Positions 8,050 through 63,205 are shown, numbered from the stretch's first letter. The stretch: 64,000 bases of DNA from an uncultured Verrucomicrobiae bacterium (GCA_963769025.1 CAVYKI010000009.1:1292015-1356014), one strand, 5' to 3'. Made by a program: numbers and translations. The notes: generated from the sequence alone by a model not told the origin.

Positions 8050-8866
8050 CTACTTCGTCGGTGCGACCGGACGCCGCGTGAGCAGGTCGAGCACGTCGCC
8101 GGGATTCAGGAAAAAGTAGCGCCGTCCATCCGGCCCCGGACGTGAACTTGGAATCGTAGATCGCGACCTTGCTCGGCCCGACGACCCGCGCGCGGTCTCC
8201 CTGCACGATGATCGCCGTGCCTTCATCGATGCCGAAGCCGAGCAGCTCCGGATGCGCGGCGATGACCGGCAGCATGTCATCGAGCCTGCCTCGCGCGATC
8301 ACGTGCTGATCGATCGCGCAATTCTTCACGAGCGAAAAGCCCTCCTCGTGGCCTTTCGCCATCATGATCGTGTTTCCCTCCGGCGCGCCGCGGACCATGT
8401 AGCTGCCCTGGATCGTTGCGCCCGCCGAACTGCCGCCGACGACACCGCCGCGCGCGAGCACGCCATGGATTTCCTTCAGCGTGCGCGTGCCGAGATACGA
8501 ATCGGCGAGCCGCCACTGCCGGCCGCCATCAAGCCAGACCGCGTTCGCCTTCGTGAGCGGTTCGACGAAAGCGGCACTGTCCGCCACCGCGCGGTCGCGC
8601 GTGTGGACGACCGTCACGTGCTTCGCCCCGGCGCGGGTGAGAAAGGAACGCGCGACATACTTCTCGCCCCAGTCCTCGCCGACGTTGGCGGTCGGGATGA
8701 TGACGAAGTTCGCATCCACGCCGCCGGCGAGCCTGATGAATTCCGCCTGCGTCTCAGCGCCAAACTTCCCTCCCCCGTGGATGAGAAGCGAGCCGTTCGC
8801 AGGGCCGACCTTGGTCTCAGCCGTCACGGTGGCCGCTGCGAGCAGGAGGAGGATGAGGATGCGCAT
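8050..8866 (-). CDS. Secreted cyanophycinase / peptidase S51 family protein (frameshift near 8120-8140)
   Basis: Signal peptide MRILILLLLAAATVTA; LLIHGGG, IIPTA, GGSSAGA nucleophile motif, IDQHVIARGRL and GIDEGTA. The C-terminus (YFFLNPGDVLDL) is in ORF 8050..8280. Confidence 0.85.
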
Positions 8867-9013
8867 CGGCGCGAAGATTGGAGGGAACATCACTTTTCAA
8901 TAACCGCCCCAGCCGGAAAAGCAGAGCGCACAAATGGCGGCACACGGAACGCGAGCTGCCGCGCCTGCAATAGAGTCCTTGGCGAGTGCCCCATCCTGCG
9001 CCATTGGTCTCCC

Positions 9014-10096
9014 ATGTCGGTCACCACCGAAAAGCCAGCCATCCAGAGCCTCGATCCCGCAGAAATCGAGGCAGCCCTCGCCGTGCGCGGACAGCCGAAG
9101 TATCGCGCGACGCAGGTCCTCCGCTGGCTCTACGAAAAGCGCGTCACCGGCTTCGCCGGAATGAGCGACCTCCCCGCCGCACTGCGCGCGGATCTCGCCG
9201 AAGCCTTCACTTTTGTCCGCTTGGAAAATCTCCGCGTGCTCGGCAGCGAGGACACGACCCGGAAATACCTCTTCAAGCTCCCCGACGGCGCGCTCATCGA
9301 GACCGTGCTCATCCCCGCGTCGCCCGCGCTCTACGGCGAGACGAGCGACCGCCGCACGCTCTGCGTGAGCACGCAGGTCGGCTGCGCGTACGGGTGCAAG
9401 TTCTGCGCGAGCGGGCTCGACGGATTTTCGCGCAATCTCTCGCCCGGCGAAATCGCCGGCCAGCTCATCGAGGCCGAGCGCCTCGCCGGCGAACGCGTGA
9501 GCAACCTCGTCTTCATGGGCATGGGCGAGCCGCTCGCGAATTTCGCCAACCTCATGCGCGCGATCGACATCATCAATTCCCCGTGGGGCCTCGGCCTCGG
9601 CGCGCGCCACATCACCGTCTCCACGAGCGGCCTCGCCCCGCAGATCCGGCAGCTCGCCGACCAGCCGCGCCAGATCCGCCTCGCCATCTCGCTGCACGGC
9701 GCGACGGATGAAGTGCGCGGCCAGATCATGCCCGTGAACCGCAAATATCCGCTCGCCGAACTGCTCGACGCGTGCGCCTACCACGCGTCGAAAAAGAAGC
9801 AGCACATCACCTTCGAATACATCCTCATCGAGGGCATCAACGACGAACCCGCGCACGCCGCCGACCTCGCCCGCGTCGCGAAGCTCGTCCGCGCCAAGGT
9901 GAACTGCATCCCCTACAACGCCGTCGAAGGACTCCAGTGGAAACGCCCGAGCGAAGCGCGGCAGGATGCCTTCATGGAAGTCCTCGAACGCGCCCGCATC
10001 CCCGCCACGATCCGCCGCGAGAAGGGACACGACATCGCCGCAGCGTGTGGTCAGCTCCGCCGCCAGCAGGCCGCTCCGTCCGTTGCCAGCAATTGA
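9014..10096 (+). CDS. rlmN: 23S rRNA/tRNA m2A methyltransferase RlmN (radical SAM)
   Basis: LCVSTQVGCAYGCKFCASG, VFMGMGEP, ISLH and DIAAACGQL. Confidence 0.95.
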   Translation: MSVTTEKPAIQSLDPAEIEAALAVRGQPKYRATQVLRWLYEKRVTGFAGMSDLPAALRADLAEAFTFVRLENLRVLGSEDTTRKYLFKLPDGALIETVLIPASPALYGETSDRRTLCVSTQVGCAYGCKFCASGLDGFSRNLSPGEIAGQLIEAERLAGERVSNLVFMGMGEPLANFANLMRAIDIINSPWGLGLGARHITVSTSGLAPQIRQLADQPRQIRLAISLHGATDEVRGQIMPVNRKYPLAELLDACAYHASKKKQHITFEYILIEGINDEPAHAADLARVAKLVRAKVNCIPYNAVEGLQWKRPSEARQDAFMEVLERARIPATIRREKGHDIAAACGQLRRQQAAPSVASN

Positions 10097-57974: not shown

Positions 57975-58073
57975 CCGCCGACGGAAGGAGGCGGGCCATT
58001 CCAAACCCCCGGCGCAATCCCCGCCGGGAAAACCCCATGAAGGATCAGCCCGCCTCCTTCCGTCGGTGGCTAC
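57971..58073. repeat. REPIN/MITE-like element with 26-bp terminal inverted repeats (GTAG...CTAC)
   Basis: GTAGCCGCCGACGGAAGGAGGCGGGC (57971-57996) versus GCCCGCCTCCTTCCGTCGGTGGCTAC (58048-58073); one mismatch. Confidence 0.85.
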
Positions 58074-58116
58074 GTCCGGGGCTCGATTTCCGCACGCGGC
58101 CTGCTACACGGGCCGG

Positions 58117-58833
58117 ATGCGTCTCCTTCTCGCCCTGCTTCTCGCGACCGCGCCACTGGCGGTTGCGGAGGAAAAGTCAGCCGCCGTGCGGCAGCTCATC
58201 CCGTGGCTGCTGGATGAGGAGGCTTCGCTGAAGGGCATCCTCTTTTCCGACGTCATCGGCGCGACCTCCGGCAGGAAGGTGCTCCCCATCGACCGGAAGG
58301 ACCCGGACACCGCACGCATCCTGGCCGCGCTCGGCAAGGTGCTCGACGGCGTGCTCGCGCAGATGAACCGCGCCGACAGCCCCGCCAAACAGCAGAAGCG
58401 GGTGAATGAGATGAGCAGACACTTCGAGGATGCGCTCGGGGCGGGCCTGAAGGCGTTGCCGGGATTCGAGTGCGGTTCCCCGAAGACGGCGTCGGGACAC
58501 CTCCAGCGCAGCGGCTACCCCGACCTGCGGCTCGTGGACAAGGCGACCGGACGCGTCCTCTACCTCGACCCGAAGCTCTACGCAAAGGGCAGCCGCCACA
58601 GTTCGCTGCGGACGTTCTATTTCACGCCGAAGCGCGAGACGAACAAGGTGAACGACGACGCGCACCACCTGATCGTCGGCTTCGAACACGAGAAGACCGG
58701 CGCGGAGGTGAACTTCACCCGCTGGGAACTCATCGACCTGAGCGGATTCCGGGTCCGCCTGAAGGCGGAGTTCCAGGGCAGCAACGCCGACATGTACCGC
58801 GAGGACGCCGTCGTCGGCGGAAGCGTGCGGTGA
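58117..58833 (+). CDS. Secreted protein with PD-(D/E)xK restriction-endonuclease-like motif
   Basis: Signal peptide MRLLLALLLATAPLAVA; E...GYPD-x14-DPK arrangement (FEDAL...SGYPDLRL...YLDPKLY). Confidence 0.65.
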   Translation: MRLLLALLLATAPLAVAEEKSAAVRQLIPWLLDEEASLKGILFSDVIGATSGRKVLPIDRKDPDTARILAALGKVLDGVLAQMNRADSPAKQQKRVNEMSRHFEDALGAGLKALPGFECGSPKTASGHLQRSGYPDLRLVDKATGRVLYLDPKLYAKGSRHSSLRTFYFTPKRETNKVNDDAHHLIVGFEHEKTGAEVNFTRWELIDLSGFRVRLKAEFQGSNADMYREDAVVGGSVR

Positions 58834-58936: not shown

Positions 58937-61900
58937 CTATTTCGCAGACAAAGCCGCACCCGCCTTGAGGCGTTCCCGCACGGCGGCAAAGCCGTCGTTC
59001 TCGATGTCCTTGATGCCTCTGGGCATGAGCACGTCACTGAGGAATCGAAGCATCAGCTCCGTGTGGTGGCAGAAGCCGGAAATCAATCTCATGTCATCGG
59101 CCGCCCCACCCCACATCGAAGGCTCCAATCCGGTTGTTTCACCTTCCAAGGCCCTCAGCTCGTCGCGCCAGTGGCGCACATGCTTAAGCCTTTGGCCGGT
59201 TGTCGAAATCGTCGCGTCCTCCAAGATTAGTGGGATGACCCTCTGGGTGAATTCGTCCTTGTCCTGAAGGCTGCGTTGGTAAACGTGGGAGAGTTCGCTC
59301 ATGCAATAGGTCGAGCCCAGATATTTCTCGCTGATCACGACGATCACTTGCGCACCCCGTCCAACCTCGCGCATGAACGTGGAAATCCAGTCGCCGGTGC
59401 GCACGGCGGTCTTGTCGCGGCGAACTTGGTAATCGGTTTCCAGAACGCGGCACAAACGTTCCACCATTGCCTCCTTCTCCCCGCCCCATGCATAGGAAAT
59501 ATGCACGATCGGCTTTTGTCCGGGCAGCAGCGGCGCGTCGGTAATTTGTAGTTTCTCGATGGGAGCCGCCTTTGCCTCCTCCTGGCTTTCCTTCACGCAG
59601 GATTCTCCGCCCTCCGGCAGAATGACGTTTGGCTTCCTTCCGAACTGAATGCCTGTGATCGCCTCTGTCAGCGTCGCACCCAGTTCCGCCGCCTGCGGTC
59701 CGCTGGTCTCGATCACGACCAGTCCCCGCGCCGGCTGGTTTTCCCTAGGCTCGGGGACAGACCGCACGCGGGCACGGCTGTGGGTCTTGCCATCGTAGAA
59801 GCAGCATCCATAGCGCCAGTAAACCGCCTTCGGCCCGGCGTGCTTCCCGATGGCGCAGAGGAACTGGCGAAGGACACCCTCGTGCAGAAAGCCGTATTCC
59901 AGCGTGGTCGTCCGAACCTCCACGCCAGCCGGCCAGAGCGCCTCGATCTGGCCGCAGACTTCGCCTTCCTCCGGCATCAGATCCGGAGCCGCGTAGTATT
60001 GGACCTTGTCATGGCTCTCGTGCAGCGGGAAGCAGATGGAGCAGCTCTCCATCATGGAGAGAATCACCGCCTGCTCATCCTTGCTGAACTGCCCACCCCA
60101 CACGACGCGATCGAGCAGTTCCGGCGTGAAAGTTCCGCCCTGCTGCCTGACCACGGGATATGCGCCATTACGGTCGAAGACACTGTAGATCGCCCGCAAC
60201 GCCCACTCCTGATCCAGCACGATCTCATTGCTGAAGAGGCCTTCCTTGTAAAACAGCACGCCGCTTCGGTGAAGGTAACTTAGTAGAACGGCGGGAACAG
60301 AACTGGCGTGATGATCCGCGCAGAGCCGGTTGAAGGCGTCCAGCGTGATGGTCTTTTTGGTCTTCGCTTCCTCCCGCAGGGTGTCCCGGACAGAAACCCA
60401 TTTCGCCGGGAGTCGGTAGTCACCGTGGTGTTCGTGCAGATGACGGGCGGCCTGCCGCATGATGGCGTCCAATAGCTCCATGCCATGCGGCTGCCTCGCG
60501 CTGCACCGGGTTTTTTCCAGCCAGAGGAAGCCGTGATCAGCCGCGGTGGCCGGTTCCCTTCGCTGGCTTTCAAAGTCACACTGCGACTGCACCACCACGA
60601 CGGTGGCATTTTCCCCGGCGAGTGAGCGGACATAGTCCAGCCAGTAGGTGAGCAGATGGTTCCGCATCGTCTGCCCGCTCTGCAGCTCCTGATAGATCCC
60701 TTCGTTTTCGAAATCGGGATTCCAAACGATCACGAAGATCGCCCTTCCCTCCAGGAACAGGGCGTGGGTGCCGTGGTAAATATCCTGCCCGCCAAAGTCC
60801 CAGAGACTGGCCTCCACGGCACCGGATCCTTCACCGGGAAGAAGCGGGAAGGTTCCCAACTGGACACCATGGGTTGTTGGAATCGTCGGATCGTATCCCA
60901 GTCCACGGAGCCGCCGGCAGATTTGGGTCTTGCCGATCCGCCCATTGCCGAGAACGAACACCTTGGCCTCCCGGTCACGGGCTTCTCCTGCTTCCAGATC
61001 ACTCCACCAGACGCGTACGCTCCGAAGACAGTCATTCCATCCGTTCTCAGACTGAACTTCAGGCGGCGCTCCCGCGATCGAATCCGTCTGGATGTCGCGC
61101 AGGCTGGGATATTCCGTGAGCACGAGAGTCGGGACAACGGTATCGGCGAGTTCATATGCAGAGAGATTTTGGAGGCAAGGCAAGGCGCGCAAAGTGGCCC
61201 ATCCCTGCTTCACGGGGCATTGACTGATCGCAAGCCTGCGTAGCATCCGCAATTCACCGAGCGGCGAGAGGTCGCTGACTTGGGTGCCGGAAACATCCAG
61301 CGCCTGCAACGAGCTGAGCTGAACCAGCGGCGAGAGGTCGCTGACTTGGGTGCCGGAAACATCCAGCGTGTGCAGCGAGCTGAGCCGAGCCAGCGGCGAG
61401 AGGTCGCAAACTTGGGTGCCGGAAACACCCAGCGTATGCAGCGAGCTAAGCTGAGCCAGCGGCAAGAGGTCGCTGACTTGGGTGTCGGAAAAATACAATG
61501 TCTGCAGCGAGACAAGCTGAGCCAGCGGCGAGAGGGCGCTGACTTGGGGGCCGGAAAAATACAATTTCTGCAGCGACCCGAGCTGAGCCAGCGGCGAGAG
61601 GTCGCTAACTTGGGGTTGAAAAGATACAGCGACTGCAGCGAGCCAAGCTGGGCCAGCAGCGAGAGGTCGCTGACTTGAGAATTGGAAACATCCAACGACT
61701 GCAGCGAGCCGAGCTGGGCCAGCGGCGAGAGGTCGCTGACTTGGGTGTCGGAAACATTCAGCTTGTGCAGCGAGCTGAGCCGAGCCAGCGGCGAGAGGTC
61801 GCTGACTTGGGTGCCGGAAACATTCAGCGTGTGCAGCGAGCTGAGCCGAGCCAGCGGCGAGAGGTCGCAAACTTGGGTGCCGGAAACACCCAGCGTATGC

Positions 61901-62223
61901 AGCGAGCTAAGCTGAGCCAGCGGCAAGAGGTCGCTGACTTGGGTGCCGGAAAGATTCAGCGTCTGCAGCGAGACAAGCTGAGCCAGCGGCGAGAGGTCGC
62001 TGACTTGGGGGCCGGAAAAAAACAATGTCTGCAGCGACCCGAGCTGAGCCAGCGGCGAGAGGTCGCTGACTTGGGAGCCGGAAACACTCAGCGTCTGCAG
62101 CGAGACAAGCTGAGCCAGCGGCGAGAGGTCGCTGACTTGGGGGCCGGGAAAATACAATGTCTGCAGCGACCCGAGCTGAGCCAGCGGCGAGAGGTCGCTG
62201 ACTTGGGTGCCGGAAACATTCAT
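58937..62223 (-). CDS. LRR-Roc GTPase-COR-TIR (Roco-TIR) protein; 1-nt frameshift near 61612 and 5' end replaced by an IS
   Basis: 22-aa LRRs (ORFs 61210..62223 and 58937..61870); Roc motifs GNGRIGKT, TTHG and WDFGGQ; COR-like LSYLHRSGVLFY...LDQEW; TIR motifs HISYAW, RRDK, VVISEKYLGSTYCMSEL and VIPL. Confidence 0.88.
61261..62222 (-). repeat. Tandem array of 15 x 66-bp repeats encoding LRRs
   Basis: The core GAGAGGTCGCTGACTTGGG, or a close variant, recurs on + at 61266, 61332, 61398, 61464, 61530, 61596, 61661 and on to 62189 (66-bp period, one 65-bp unit). Confidence 0.95.
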
Positions 62224-62947
62224 TCATTGGCCAGTTTGATGATGTGGAAGTGGTCGAAGACGATGGCCGCCCCTGGCAGGTGTTCGAGGATGGCGCTCCA
62301 GTAGGCGGCACTCATGTCGCAGGCCACCGCCTCCACGCGCGCCCTGGCCAGCCGCAGCCGCCGCCAGAACTTGCGCAGTGCATCCCCGCCGCGCCCCTTG
62401 GCCACCCAGAGGATGCGACCGGTGTCCAGATCGATGACCAGCGTGAGGAACTTCGCCTTTTTGCCCAGATGGATTTCATCAATGGCCAGCCGCCGGACCT
62501 CCCGCAGCGGGATGCGCGCATAGCGCCGCCGCAGGTCGGCCTTGACGATCTCCTTGACGGTGTCCCACCCCAGATGCGCCAGCGCCGCCACCTCCGAGAG
62601 CGTCATGAAACGGCTCAGCTCGCAGGCGAACTCCGCGAGCCCATGCGTGTAGTGCGCGTAGGCCGGGGCAAAAAGGGGGCCACCTCGAACCCATGCCCGC
62701 ACACCCGGCACTGGCAGCGCGGCACCTCAGCCACCAGCACCACTTCCTTGAGCCCAATGGGCACCGTGCGAATGCGCCGCCAACGCTTGCCACGCCGCAT
62801 CGCCGGTCCGGCCCCACACTTCGGGCAGACCAGCTCCTCCTCCTTCACCGCCAGATGAAACTCCACCCGCCCCTCCACGTACCCGGTCTTCACATATTCA
62901 TACCCTTCACGGACCCCAAACGCATGATACAAAAGGCTCTGGCTCAT
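62220..62947 (-). pseudogene. ISL3 transposase fragment in two frames
   Basis: Zinc finger CPKCG...CQCRVC (62615..62947); LAIDE, VIDLDTG, VACDMSAAY and IVFDHFH (62220..62711); the C-terminal half is missing. Confidence 0.88.
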
Positions 62948-63001
62948 CCCTCCCTTCTACCACTTCCCAACCCCTGTAAGCCATCACTCCCCGGATGAAC
63001 C
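62220..63001 (-). mobile_element. Truncated ISL3-family insertion sequence (5' half only)
   Basis: Left end GGTTCATCCGG at 63001; the transposase stops after FDHFHIIKLANE; no right end found. Confidence 0.85.
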
Positions 63002-63205
63002 TTTTTTGGCCCGTGCTTTGTTGGTTTTCTTACCCCGGCCCGAGCCGCTCTTCTTTCCTCCACCGTCCATTTTGTTCACGGTGGCCCACGCGCGGGCGGC
63101 AGCTTCTTTTTTTGGCACACCCCGATCTTCGTAGCCTTCCTCGATGTGCTCGGCTTGACGCTTCTGTTTGGCGGTGTAGCTGCGTTTGTCTCCTCTGGGT
63201 GTCAT
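62984..63205 (-). pseudogene. Small basic protein (PRGDK..Y..KQKRQAEHIE family, often annotated 'plasmid stabilization protein'), interrupted by ISL3
   Basis: Recognisable N-terminus ...RAWATVNK.DGGG; the last codons (GSSGE) are read from the IS end at 63001. Confidence 0.65.

Follow-up and report, generated by a model that had tools for sequence, protein, structure and literature searches.

A leucine-rich repeat Roc-COR-TIR protein in an uncultured Verrucomicrobiae bacterium: a candidate GTPase-gated innate immune receptor

We analyzed a window of 64,000 nucleotides from the genome assembly of an uncultured Verrucomicrobiae bacterium (GCA_963769025.1, CAVYKI010000009.1:1292015-1356014; positions below are counted from the first letter of this window), which carries on the minus strand, at 58937-62223, a gene for a protein with leucine-rich repeats (LRRs), a Roc-COR GTPase module and a C-terminal TIR domain. 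By sequence comparison the protein is a member of the Roco family, in its LRR-Roc-COR-TIR branch ('AP-GTPase'). In the reading that we favor, with slightly better than even confidence, the locus would encode a cytoplasmic sensor, switch and NAD+ hydrolase (NADase) in a single polypeptide. An earlier reading of this DNA, made from the sequence alone (the sequence-only reading), had described the same architecture; its description is correct, its coordinates are exact, and it was accurate in every item that could be checked.

Domain architecture of the protein

The gene is present as two overlapping open reading frames (ORFs) in two frames, 61210..62223 (337 aa) and 58937..61870 (977 aa). The Pfam search that the sequence-only reading had proposed as a check confirmed the architecture, with LRR_4, Roc, COR-A and TIR_2 all above their cut-offs. 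LRR_4 was found on both ORFs (114.5 and 64.4 bits, cut-off 27); on the long ORF, Roc (PF08477) lies at residues 303-432 (55.2 bits, cut-off 27), COR-A (PF16095) at residues 488-631 (87.6 bits, cut-off 35.3) and TIR_2 (PF13676) at residues 789-899 (49 bits, cut-off 28), and COR-B (PF25497) is below threshold by sequence (22.9 bits, cut-off 27). The domain order is thus LRR, Roc, COR-A, COR-B, a flexible linker and TIR. No Pfam family for a STAND domain (NB-ARC, NACHT or other) was found in the protein at E-values up to 0.01.

On the DNA, all on the minus strand, 15 regular LRR units of 66 nt (22 aa) and of internalin type occupy 61232..62222, as delimited by repeat analysis and LRR_4. The irregular C-terminal LRRs, their cap and a helix leading into Roc follow at 60965..61231, a region placed by the secondary structure of an AlphaFold2 (AF2) model and by an alignment of 20 full-length relatives (alignment A1). 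The Roc domain spans 60575..60964 and is supported by both PF08477 and PDB matches around 1e-20 (4WNR, 3DPU and 6HLU); the motifs that had been read in it are found on translation at the computed coordinates, with the P-loop GNGRIGKT at 60926-60949, WDFGGQ at 60785-60802 and SQCD in the G4 position at 60575-60586, and the switch I motif TTHG is likewise present. The COR region that had been claimed consists of COR-A at 59978..60409 and COR-B, the dimerization domain in C. tepidum Roco, at 59645..59902, the latter placed by the sub-threshold PF25497 match together with a fold alignment of 740 columns to 6HLU. A linker of ~29 aa between COR-B and TIR (59528..59614) is predicted to be disordered, with a predicted local distance difference test score (pLDDT) below 50 at residues 663-691 of the 887-aa model. 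The TIR domain and a C-terminal helical extension occupy 58940..59506 (TIR_2, TIR alignment, PDB profile, AF2 and Foldseek), with the codon of the family-invariant Glu at 59294-59296 and the stop codon at 58937-58939.

Neither PADLOC nor NCBIfam has a family name for the protein. As the best NCBIfam matches are internalin LRR models, relatives are named 'internalin A' by JGI, and BtpA/TcpB is among the weak structural and profile matches, we considered that the protein might be secreted or exposed at the surface and aimed at a eukaryotic host, as an internalin-like LRR adhesin or a TcpB/BtpA-like TIR effector. The internalin matches, however, cover the LRRs only and score far below the cut-off (83 bits vs 1600), the central Roc-COR GTPase implies a cytoplasmic nucleotide-dependent switch, and the hosts are free-living soil and water bacteria. 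The sequence-only reading had noted that no signal peptide is visible, and full-length relatives in alignment A1 indeed begin with a hydrophilic, helical N-terminus that has no hydrophobic leader. We therefore regard a host-directed role as very improbable.

Comparison with known Roco and TIR proteins

In sequence searches, the Roc-COR part matches M. barkeri Roco2 (4WNR, 1.1e-20) and C. tepidum Roco (CtRoco; 3DPU, 6HLU and 8R4B, 3.5e-20 to 4.2e-19). The GTP-binding motifs are all intact, and GTPase competence is predicted. The AF2 model of the 887-residue in-frame part (pLDDT 81.9, predicted template modeling score 0.61) has as its best fold match the LRR-Roc-COR structure 6HLU (E-value 2e-31, 740 columns, template modeling (TM) score 0.53), followed by LRRK1 and LRRK2. 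Thus, the protein has the same LRR-Roc-COR core as CtRoco (6HLU, 3DPU, 8R4B) and M. barkeri Roco2 (4WNR), but at an identity of only ~20%, and with a TIR domain added after COR on the ~29-aa linker. From our reading of the alignment, the G4 position is NKID in M. barkeri Roco2 and SQCD here. Human LRRK1 and LRRK2 have the same module with an atypical G4 (fold matches with E-values of 1e-17 to 1e-22), but differ in their effector part, a kinase and WD40, and in their extra ARM and ANK repeats, and are only 14-18% identical.

Against the PDB, a single TIR sequence gave only a marginal match (Roq1, E-value 0.07). This was superseded by a profile of 56 family TIR domains (alignment A2, consisting of the window copy and those of 55 of 80 related loci, all with full TIR coverage), which matched Roq1 (5e-10), RUN1 (1.8e-9), L6, RPV1, PdTIR and Cat1. 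The family motif C-M-x-E-L aligns with CLEEL in Roq1 and CLDEL in RUN1 with the Glu in register, which is the position that we take to be catalytic (E100 in RUN1). The title of PDB entry 7S2Z reads 'E100A mutant ... bound to NAD'. The invariant residues of alignment A2 are S, D, G, S, C, E and W, and the Glu is present in 56 of 56 domains; together with the TIR_2 match, this bears out the claim of a C-terminal TIR that retains its Glu. Structural searches with Foldseek, using an AF2 model of the TIR domain (pLDDT 92.4), returned SPARTA TIR-APAZ, RUN1, RPS4, L6, Roq1 and AbTir, with TM scores by target of 0.58-0.72 for the plant TIRs.

Modeling of four TIR copies gave 0.45, compared with 0.00 for the best of three controls, though four copies depart from the conditions under which the tool was calibrated, and the tool may be reproducing TIR assemblies that had already been solved. 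Of 30 proteins whose solved structures are pairs of one chain, 20 attain the mark for self-association, compared with 1 of 23 whose structures are single chains. Between runs of the four-copy model at least 51% of contacts are shared, and the partner pLDDT is no lower than 74; in the wording of the tool, the result 'supports, does not show' association.

Plant TIR-NLRs such as Roq1 and RPP1, and bacterial STAND/NLR-like TIR proteins, combine an LRR sensor, an NTPase switch and a TIR NADase in one chain, as is proposed here, and in the working model for TIR-NLRs activation occurs by induced proximity of the TIR domains. In contrast to these proteins, the present one has a Ras-like Roc-COR GTPase instead of a STAND (NB-ARC or NACHT) ATPase, and its domain order is reversed, with the LRRs at the N-terminus and the TIR at the C-terminus. 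It would work like an NLR, but is not one.

Distribution and conservation of the family

A search with the Roc-COR-TIR query retrieved 940 proteins at E-values up to 0.001 among 7,999 scored candidates, the best non-self identity being 57%. Of the 120 best-scoring proteins, 118 carry TIR_2, Roc and COR-A by our reading. The sequence-only reading had stated that the architecture occurs in other bacteria, and this is amply the case, as at least 581 of the 600 pattern matches listed, on contigs from one genome per species, encode relatives. They are found in Verrucomicrobiota, Acidobacteriota, Planctomycetota, Nitrospira, cyanobacteria and many Proteobacteria, and go by database names such as 'COR domain-containing protein', 'leucine-rich repeat domain-containing protein' or the JGI name already mentioned. 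Intact relatives exist in cultured strains, for example of Sphaerotilus (such as Sphaerotilus sulfidivorans), Rivihabitans (such as Rivihabitans pingtungensis), Lysobacter hankyongensis and Aquaspirillum sp. LM1.

Conservation was assessed on 83 family ORFs from 78 of the 80 loci, 77 of which have a P-loop. All of these 77 contain WDFGGQ. The G4-position SQCD had been called atypical; the motif is indeed present, but it is the commonest form among the relatives (27 of 77), and the x-x-C-x pattern is shared by 69 of 77, with xxC[D/E/A] as the family norm. SQCD is therefore to be regarded as normal for the family and not as a sign of decay. Ahead of the P-loop, these proteins carry anywhere from 49 to 745 residues (median 379).

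Closer to the source genome the picture is different: an orthologue including the TIR was found in none of 24 genomes of the same genus and none of 16 of the same order, where the best match (31% identity) covers Roc-COR only. The gene is thus accessory in character and its distribution is patchy.

A second protein with TIR and Roc is encoded in the same genome, on the contig from which the window was taken (C9), ~48 kb before the window start (locus L006:643-3192:-). It has 849 aa and a different layout, with TIR_2 at residues 9-129, a WD40 propeller, and Roc at residues 468-586.

The LRR array

The repeats were delimited with Tandem Repeats Finder, which reports a period of 66, 14.6 copies and 86% matches at 61260-62219, and by setting the LRR register, which gives 15 units of 22 aa with the consensus NVSGTQVSDLSPLAQLSSLQTL. 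About three irregular repeats and a cap follow the regular array, with strands at residues 122-171 of the AF2 model. These results bear out what the sequence-only reading had counted, namely 15 regular LRRs plus capping repeats.

At the DNA level the units have a mean identity of 83%, and the units that start at 61890 and 61429 are 100% identical; an internal block of ~3 units is duplicated within the array, seven units apart. The differences from the consensus codons comprise 62 non-synonymous and 24 synonymous changes, and the variation is concentrated at unit positions 1, 2, 4, 5, 17, 20 and 21. At the five invariant Leu positions (10, 13, 16, 19 and 22) there are none of the 62 non-synonymous and 16 of the 24 synonymous differences. 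This descriptive pattern, which is no formal test of selection, fits recent duplication of units accompanied by change at predicted exposed positions, and mis-assembly of the repeats could contribute to it. No such units were found elsewhere in the assembly, as 29 of 29 matches fall at this locus on contig C9.

Proposed function and prior prediction

Based on the architecture and the structural comparisons, we propose the following mechanism. At rest, the LRR arm would be folded back on Roc-COR, as in nucleotide-free CtRoco, and the tethered TIR domains would be held away from one another. The concave face of the LRRs would bind a ligand, most likely a protein from a phage or another invader, and this binding, in combination with the GTP state of Roc, would open the molecule. 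The TIR domains might then cluster and hydrolyze NAD+, and thereby stop the infected cell by growth arrest. Speculatively, clustering might be achieved through a multivalent ligand, or if open protomers re-oligomerize as LRRK2 does on Rab29.

More generally, LRR-Roc-COR-TIR proteins could form a class of GTPase-gated innate immune receptors that are built like NLRs around an LRRK2-type switch, in which the GTP/GDP state and the release of the LRRs decide on TIR clustering and the burning of NAD+. We put this forward tentatively, at somewhat less than an even chance. If true, sensing of pathogens leading to cell death may have been the ancestral job of the Roc-COR module, which later gave rise to DAPK and LRRK2, and near-identical 66-nt LRR cassettes that duplicate in blocks would be a way in which specificity is renewed.

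A Roco module combined with another effector is found in Runella, where a gasdermin-activating protease is labeled Roc-COR-CHAT in a figure legend (Johnson et al., 2021, bioRxiv 10.1101/2021.06.07.447441). That system differs from the present protein in that it comprises two genes, with a protease that acts on the product of a separate gasdermin gene, and lacks a fused TIR. Johnson and colleagues are said to have found that the CHAT protease cleaves the gasdermin and causes cell death, in which case a Roco module would be coupled to a death effector there.

The idea of an immune role has a precedent. Kaur, Iyer, Burroughs and Aravind (2021, eLife; PMC8195603) described, in the available text, LRR/AP-GTPase(Roc)/COR proteins with at least 24 C-terminal effector domains, TIR being listed among them, and predicted that they form a 'counter-invader' conflict system. 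The architecture of these systems (their Fig. 6D) is that of the present protein, with rapidly evolving N-terminal LRRs, Roc-COR and a variable effector slot; they are single-protein systems, often with several paralogues, and, as far as the accessible sections go, there is no difference in kind from the present protein, of which the copy studied here is incomplete. In the accessible text of a 2026 preprint from the same line of work, the AP-GTPase is presented as a switch that replaces STAND NTPases (10.64898/2026.10.19.760177), and a TPR-ROCO-TIR protein is mentioned for a red alga in the part available of a further paper (PMC11378527). The reading of the gene as a one-gene sensor, switch and effector, as given from sequence alone, thus stands as far as architecture and logic are concerned and matches a published prediction, whereas the enrichment near defense or mobile genes that it had named as a check was not found in a coarse test (see below).

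Roco proteins have been studied mainly because of LRRK2 and Parkinson's disease. A Roc-COR switch fused to an enzyme with a simple readout, the loss of NAD+, would be tractable and could show how LRR ligands and the GTPase cycle control an effector. In addition, the family could serve to test the published prediction of immune receptors parallel to NLRs.

Evidence from gene neighborhoods and points against an immune function

The neighborhoods were analyzed in a set of 80 related loci, in which 1,092 ORFs were called with our own ORF caller and clustered, and for 35 of these loci the four nearest ORFs (140 in total) were inspected. No conserved partner gene is apparent, because even the commonest neighbor family (ABC ATPase) occurs in only 9 of 80 loci, the next being a histidine kinase (8 of 80). 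Domains of toxin-antitoxin, mobile or conflict type were found by Pfam among the four nearest ORFs in ~10 of 35 loci, a count from which no enrichment is claimed.

Several observations weigh against the proposed immune function. The nearest ORFs are mostly housekeeping genes (dnaK/dnaJ, ligA, ruvA, ftsH, purM, mnmE, transporters) or unannotated. PADLOC matches at 1e-8 were found for 12 of the 140 nearest ORFs and for 8 of 129 ORFs located 6-10 kb away, at the edges of the same loci (Fisher p = 0.49), in a test that is coarse, with 35 of 80 loci, our own ORF caller and a database biased to well-studied phyla; several of the near matches are generic ATPase cross-hits. The protein itself is covered by no system model in PADLOC-DB v2.0.0, the only match being bSEFIR (3.9e-5, 21.6 bits) over 72 TIR residues. 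Only 13 of 72,556 plasmid records match, 1 of them at full length, and none of 50,697 phage records do. The weakest link of the mechanism is the step from opening to clustering, which is speculative, because the GTP state of CtRoco is monomeric, the opposite of the clustering that a TIR NADase needs; in the accessible text on CtRoco, a compact nucleotide-free dimer gives way to an open GTP-bound monomer in which the LRR is rotated by ~135 degrees (PMC11052575). Both the architecture and the immune idea are already in print and not new, and the published work is computational only by its available text (PMC8195603). The sequence-only reading knew of no established function, and full-text literature searches likewise returned no paper on the experimental function of a bacterial Roc-COR-TIR protein. 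Finally, the gene copy in the window is incomplete, without its native start and in an error-rich assembly, and a search of the 83%-complete assembly by tblastn with the first 75 residues of 7 full-length relatives found no N-terminal cap elsewhere, the best match (E-value 0.013) being a generic LRR-like stretch of 22 residues.

The largely housekeeping neighborhoods and the lack of local PADLOC enrichment would also be expected if the protein were a regulatory or cell-fate switch outside immunity, for instance one that controls stress- or kin-triggered cell death or metabolic signaling in environmentally complex or multicellular-type bacteria, with LRRs that recognize a ligand from the cell itself or from its environment. 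Members of the family are frequent in Acidobacteriota, Planctomycetota, Verrucomicrobiota, Sphaerotilus and cyanobacteria, and Kaur et al. (2020, 2021) link such systems in these groups to a multicellular habit in the text available (PMC7159879, PMC8195603). However, the gene is absent from all 24 same-genus genomes, the number of LRRs is highly variable and the effector slot is swappable; patchy presence, variable LRRs and a swappable effector fit arms-race genes better than core regulators. We thus consider a non-immune switch unlikely.

The neighborhoods also bear on the question of whether the TIR depletes NAD+ itself. It could instead be a signal generator or a scaffold, with a cyclic ADP-ribose-type nucleotide or a recruited protein activating an unlinked effector, much as ThsB of Thoeris or the TIR adaptors of animals do. 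Plant TIRs and ThsB make cyclase-type products, with which the fold and the Glu of the present TIR are also compatible, and plant TIRs and AbTir are among its top structural matches. On the other hand, none of the 80 loci offers a conserved neighbor that might read a signal, and no ThsA-like, SLOG or SAVED-type neighbor was seen among the 140 nearest ORFs. In Thoeris, a ThsA-like effector (SIR2/SLOG or other) is encoded beside the TIR gene, whereas the gene in the window is flanked by a convergent restriction endonuclease-like gene and a remnant of an insertion sequence (IS). In addition, Kaur et al. (2021) assign the TIR to the C-terminal slot that caspase, trypsin and GT4 also occupy, which are terminal effectors according to the available text (PMC8195603). 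A TIR that acts without NAD+ depletion of its own therefore appears quite unlikely to us, and we retain the reading as a sensor, switch and NADase in one chain.

Some individual loci have neighbors worth recording. In a Sphaerotilus metagenome-assembled genome (MAG; L010:8586-14339), the Roco-TIR gene lies between genes similar to PD-Lambda-2 A/B (HigB-like) and a gene for a HipA-family kinase, an arrangement as if it had been inserted in or beside a toxin-antitoxin-type defense cassette. In two alphaproteobacterial loci (L050:12549-12956:+ and L059:13608-14033:+), an ORF of 135-141 aa directly downstream of the Roco-TIR gene matches the PADLOC candidate PDC-M50A (1.5e-24 and 1.2e-26) and belongs to a cluster of ORFs from 3 loci. 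In a Gemmataceae MAG (L019:5636-8119:+), a protein with TCAD9 and TPR-S, a combination known as a component of 'ternary conflict systems', is encoded upstream of the Roco-TIR gene by one of its four nearest ORFs, and an ORF for a LysR-type regulator (8212-9486) lies in between.

Integrity of the gene copy

Two breaks affect the copy in the window. The first is the change of frame, which the sequence-only reading had implied. The spacing of the LRR anchors is 66 nt throughout, with the exception of one interval of 131 (2 x 66 - 1) where 132 would be expected. The missing base falls in a run of four C (61612..61615, minus strand), where the repeat register is one base short and sister units have five C, and its loss splits the gene into two frames. 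The second is the loss of the native N-terminus, which had also been recognized: the LRR sequence begins at 62222 and immediately adjoins position 779 of a 1288-bp ISL3 element, in the middle of its transposase gene. The window ends where contig C9 does, and 1.8 kb separates this junction from the contig end. Contigs that carry the IS depart from the window at precisely 62223 in four of four metagenome runs. Contigs of these four best-matching runs extend partly over 60008-60913 and over the IS at 62223-63154, and none extends over 60914-62222, so that they neither confirm nor refute either break.

Using 16 proteins from the related loci as probes of the assembly, we found that 35 of 90 gene copies change frame; the 70 changes over 36,454 aligned residues amount to 0.64 per kb. 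Even dnaK (C10:441266-443199) is in two frames, and purM (C9:915768-916720) is in five pieces. At this rate ~2.1 frame changes are expected in a gene of 3.29 kb. Because of this rate and of the split dnaK and purM, the frame break is probably an assembly or sequencing error. The truncation at the 5' end may be a real IS-associated deletion, or a mis-join at the contig end within near-identical tandem repeats.

These data allow for the possibility that the copy in the window is a dead relic, in which an IS-associated deletion removed the 5' end and the promoter and a real deletion of one base broke the frame, such that no functional product is made regardless of the role of the family. The fusion of the LRRs to the middle of the ISL3 transposase gene at 62222/62223, the departure of the IS-bearing contigs from the window exactly at this junction in all four runs, the failure to find a family N-terminal cap elsewhere in the assembly and the frame break in the assembled sequence would all be in line with this. 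Nevertheless, a single break in 3.3 kb is to be expected from error alone, the junction is close to the end of a contig whose final 1 kb is a 99.9% copy of sequence inside contig C6, and assembly typically fails in near-identical tandem repeats such as these 66-nt units. Moreover, all residues invariant in alignment A1 (20 full-length proteins) and alignment A2 (56 TIR domains) are intact in the part downstream of the break. The split dnaK and purM in the same assembly make a pseudogene less likely; we regard a dead relic as quite possible, though rather improbable on balance. In an assembly so rich in indels, any 'pseudogene' call requires support from reads.

As a consequence of its incompleteness and of the error-rich metagenome assembly, the present copy itself adds little, and the intact relatives in cultured strains are more suitable for further work.

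Genomic surroundings in the window

The ISL3-family remnant upstream of the gene (62223..63001, minus strand) represents the first 779 of 1288 bp and has its terminal inverted repeat at ~62979-63001; the transposase is cut at position 92 of 240 (Pfam DDE_Tnp_ISL3 profile positions 1-92). Full 1288-bp copies are present at C9:416006-417293 and C2:422501-423773, with the terminal repeats GGTTCATCCGGGGAGTGATGGCT. In the full copy at C9:416006-417293 the transposase is encoded in two overlapping frames (113 aa and 329 aa), and the remnant in the window is split alike. As metagenome contigs over the remnant have no gaps relative to the window, the transposase frameshift appears genuine and is possibly programmed. 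The terminal 1 kb of the contig (63002..64000) is 99.9% identical to C6:638875-639875, where the site is without an IS. The contig end may therefore be rearranged or mis-joined, or reflect strain heterogeneity with an IS insertion.

On the other side, a 255-aa ORF on the plus strand (58066..58833) is convergent with the Roco gene and has a signal-peptide-like N-terminus (MRLLLALLLATAPLAVA). It matches the PADLOC profile REase_II (6.6e-25, profile positions 21-224 of 230), and a leader on a restriction enzyme-like protein is odd; the ORF has no Pfam match and no match to a PDB sequence, and no methyltransferase gene lies beside it. The possibility of an operon or a partner gene in the window was considered and rejected, as the gene downstream is convergent, the sequence upstream is IS debris and relatives share no neighbor.

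Beyond the restriction endonuclease-like ORF lie deoA and deoB. The G+C content is ~0.60 across 58.5-62 kb, compared with 0.643 for the genome, and the deoA of this Verrucomicrobiota genome is up to 85-86% identical to those of genomes labeled Chthoniobacteraceae.

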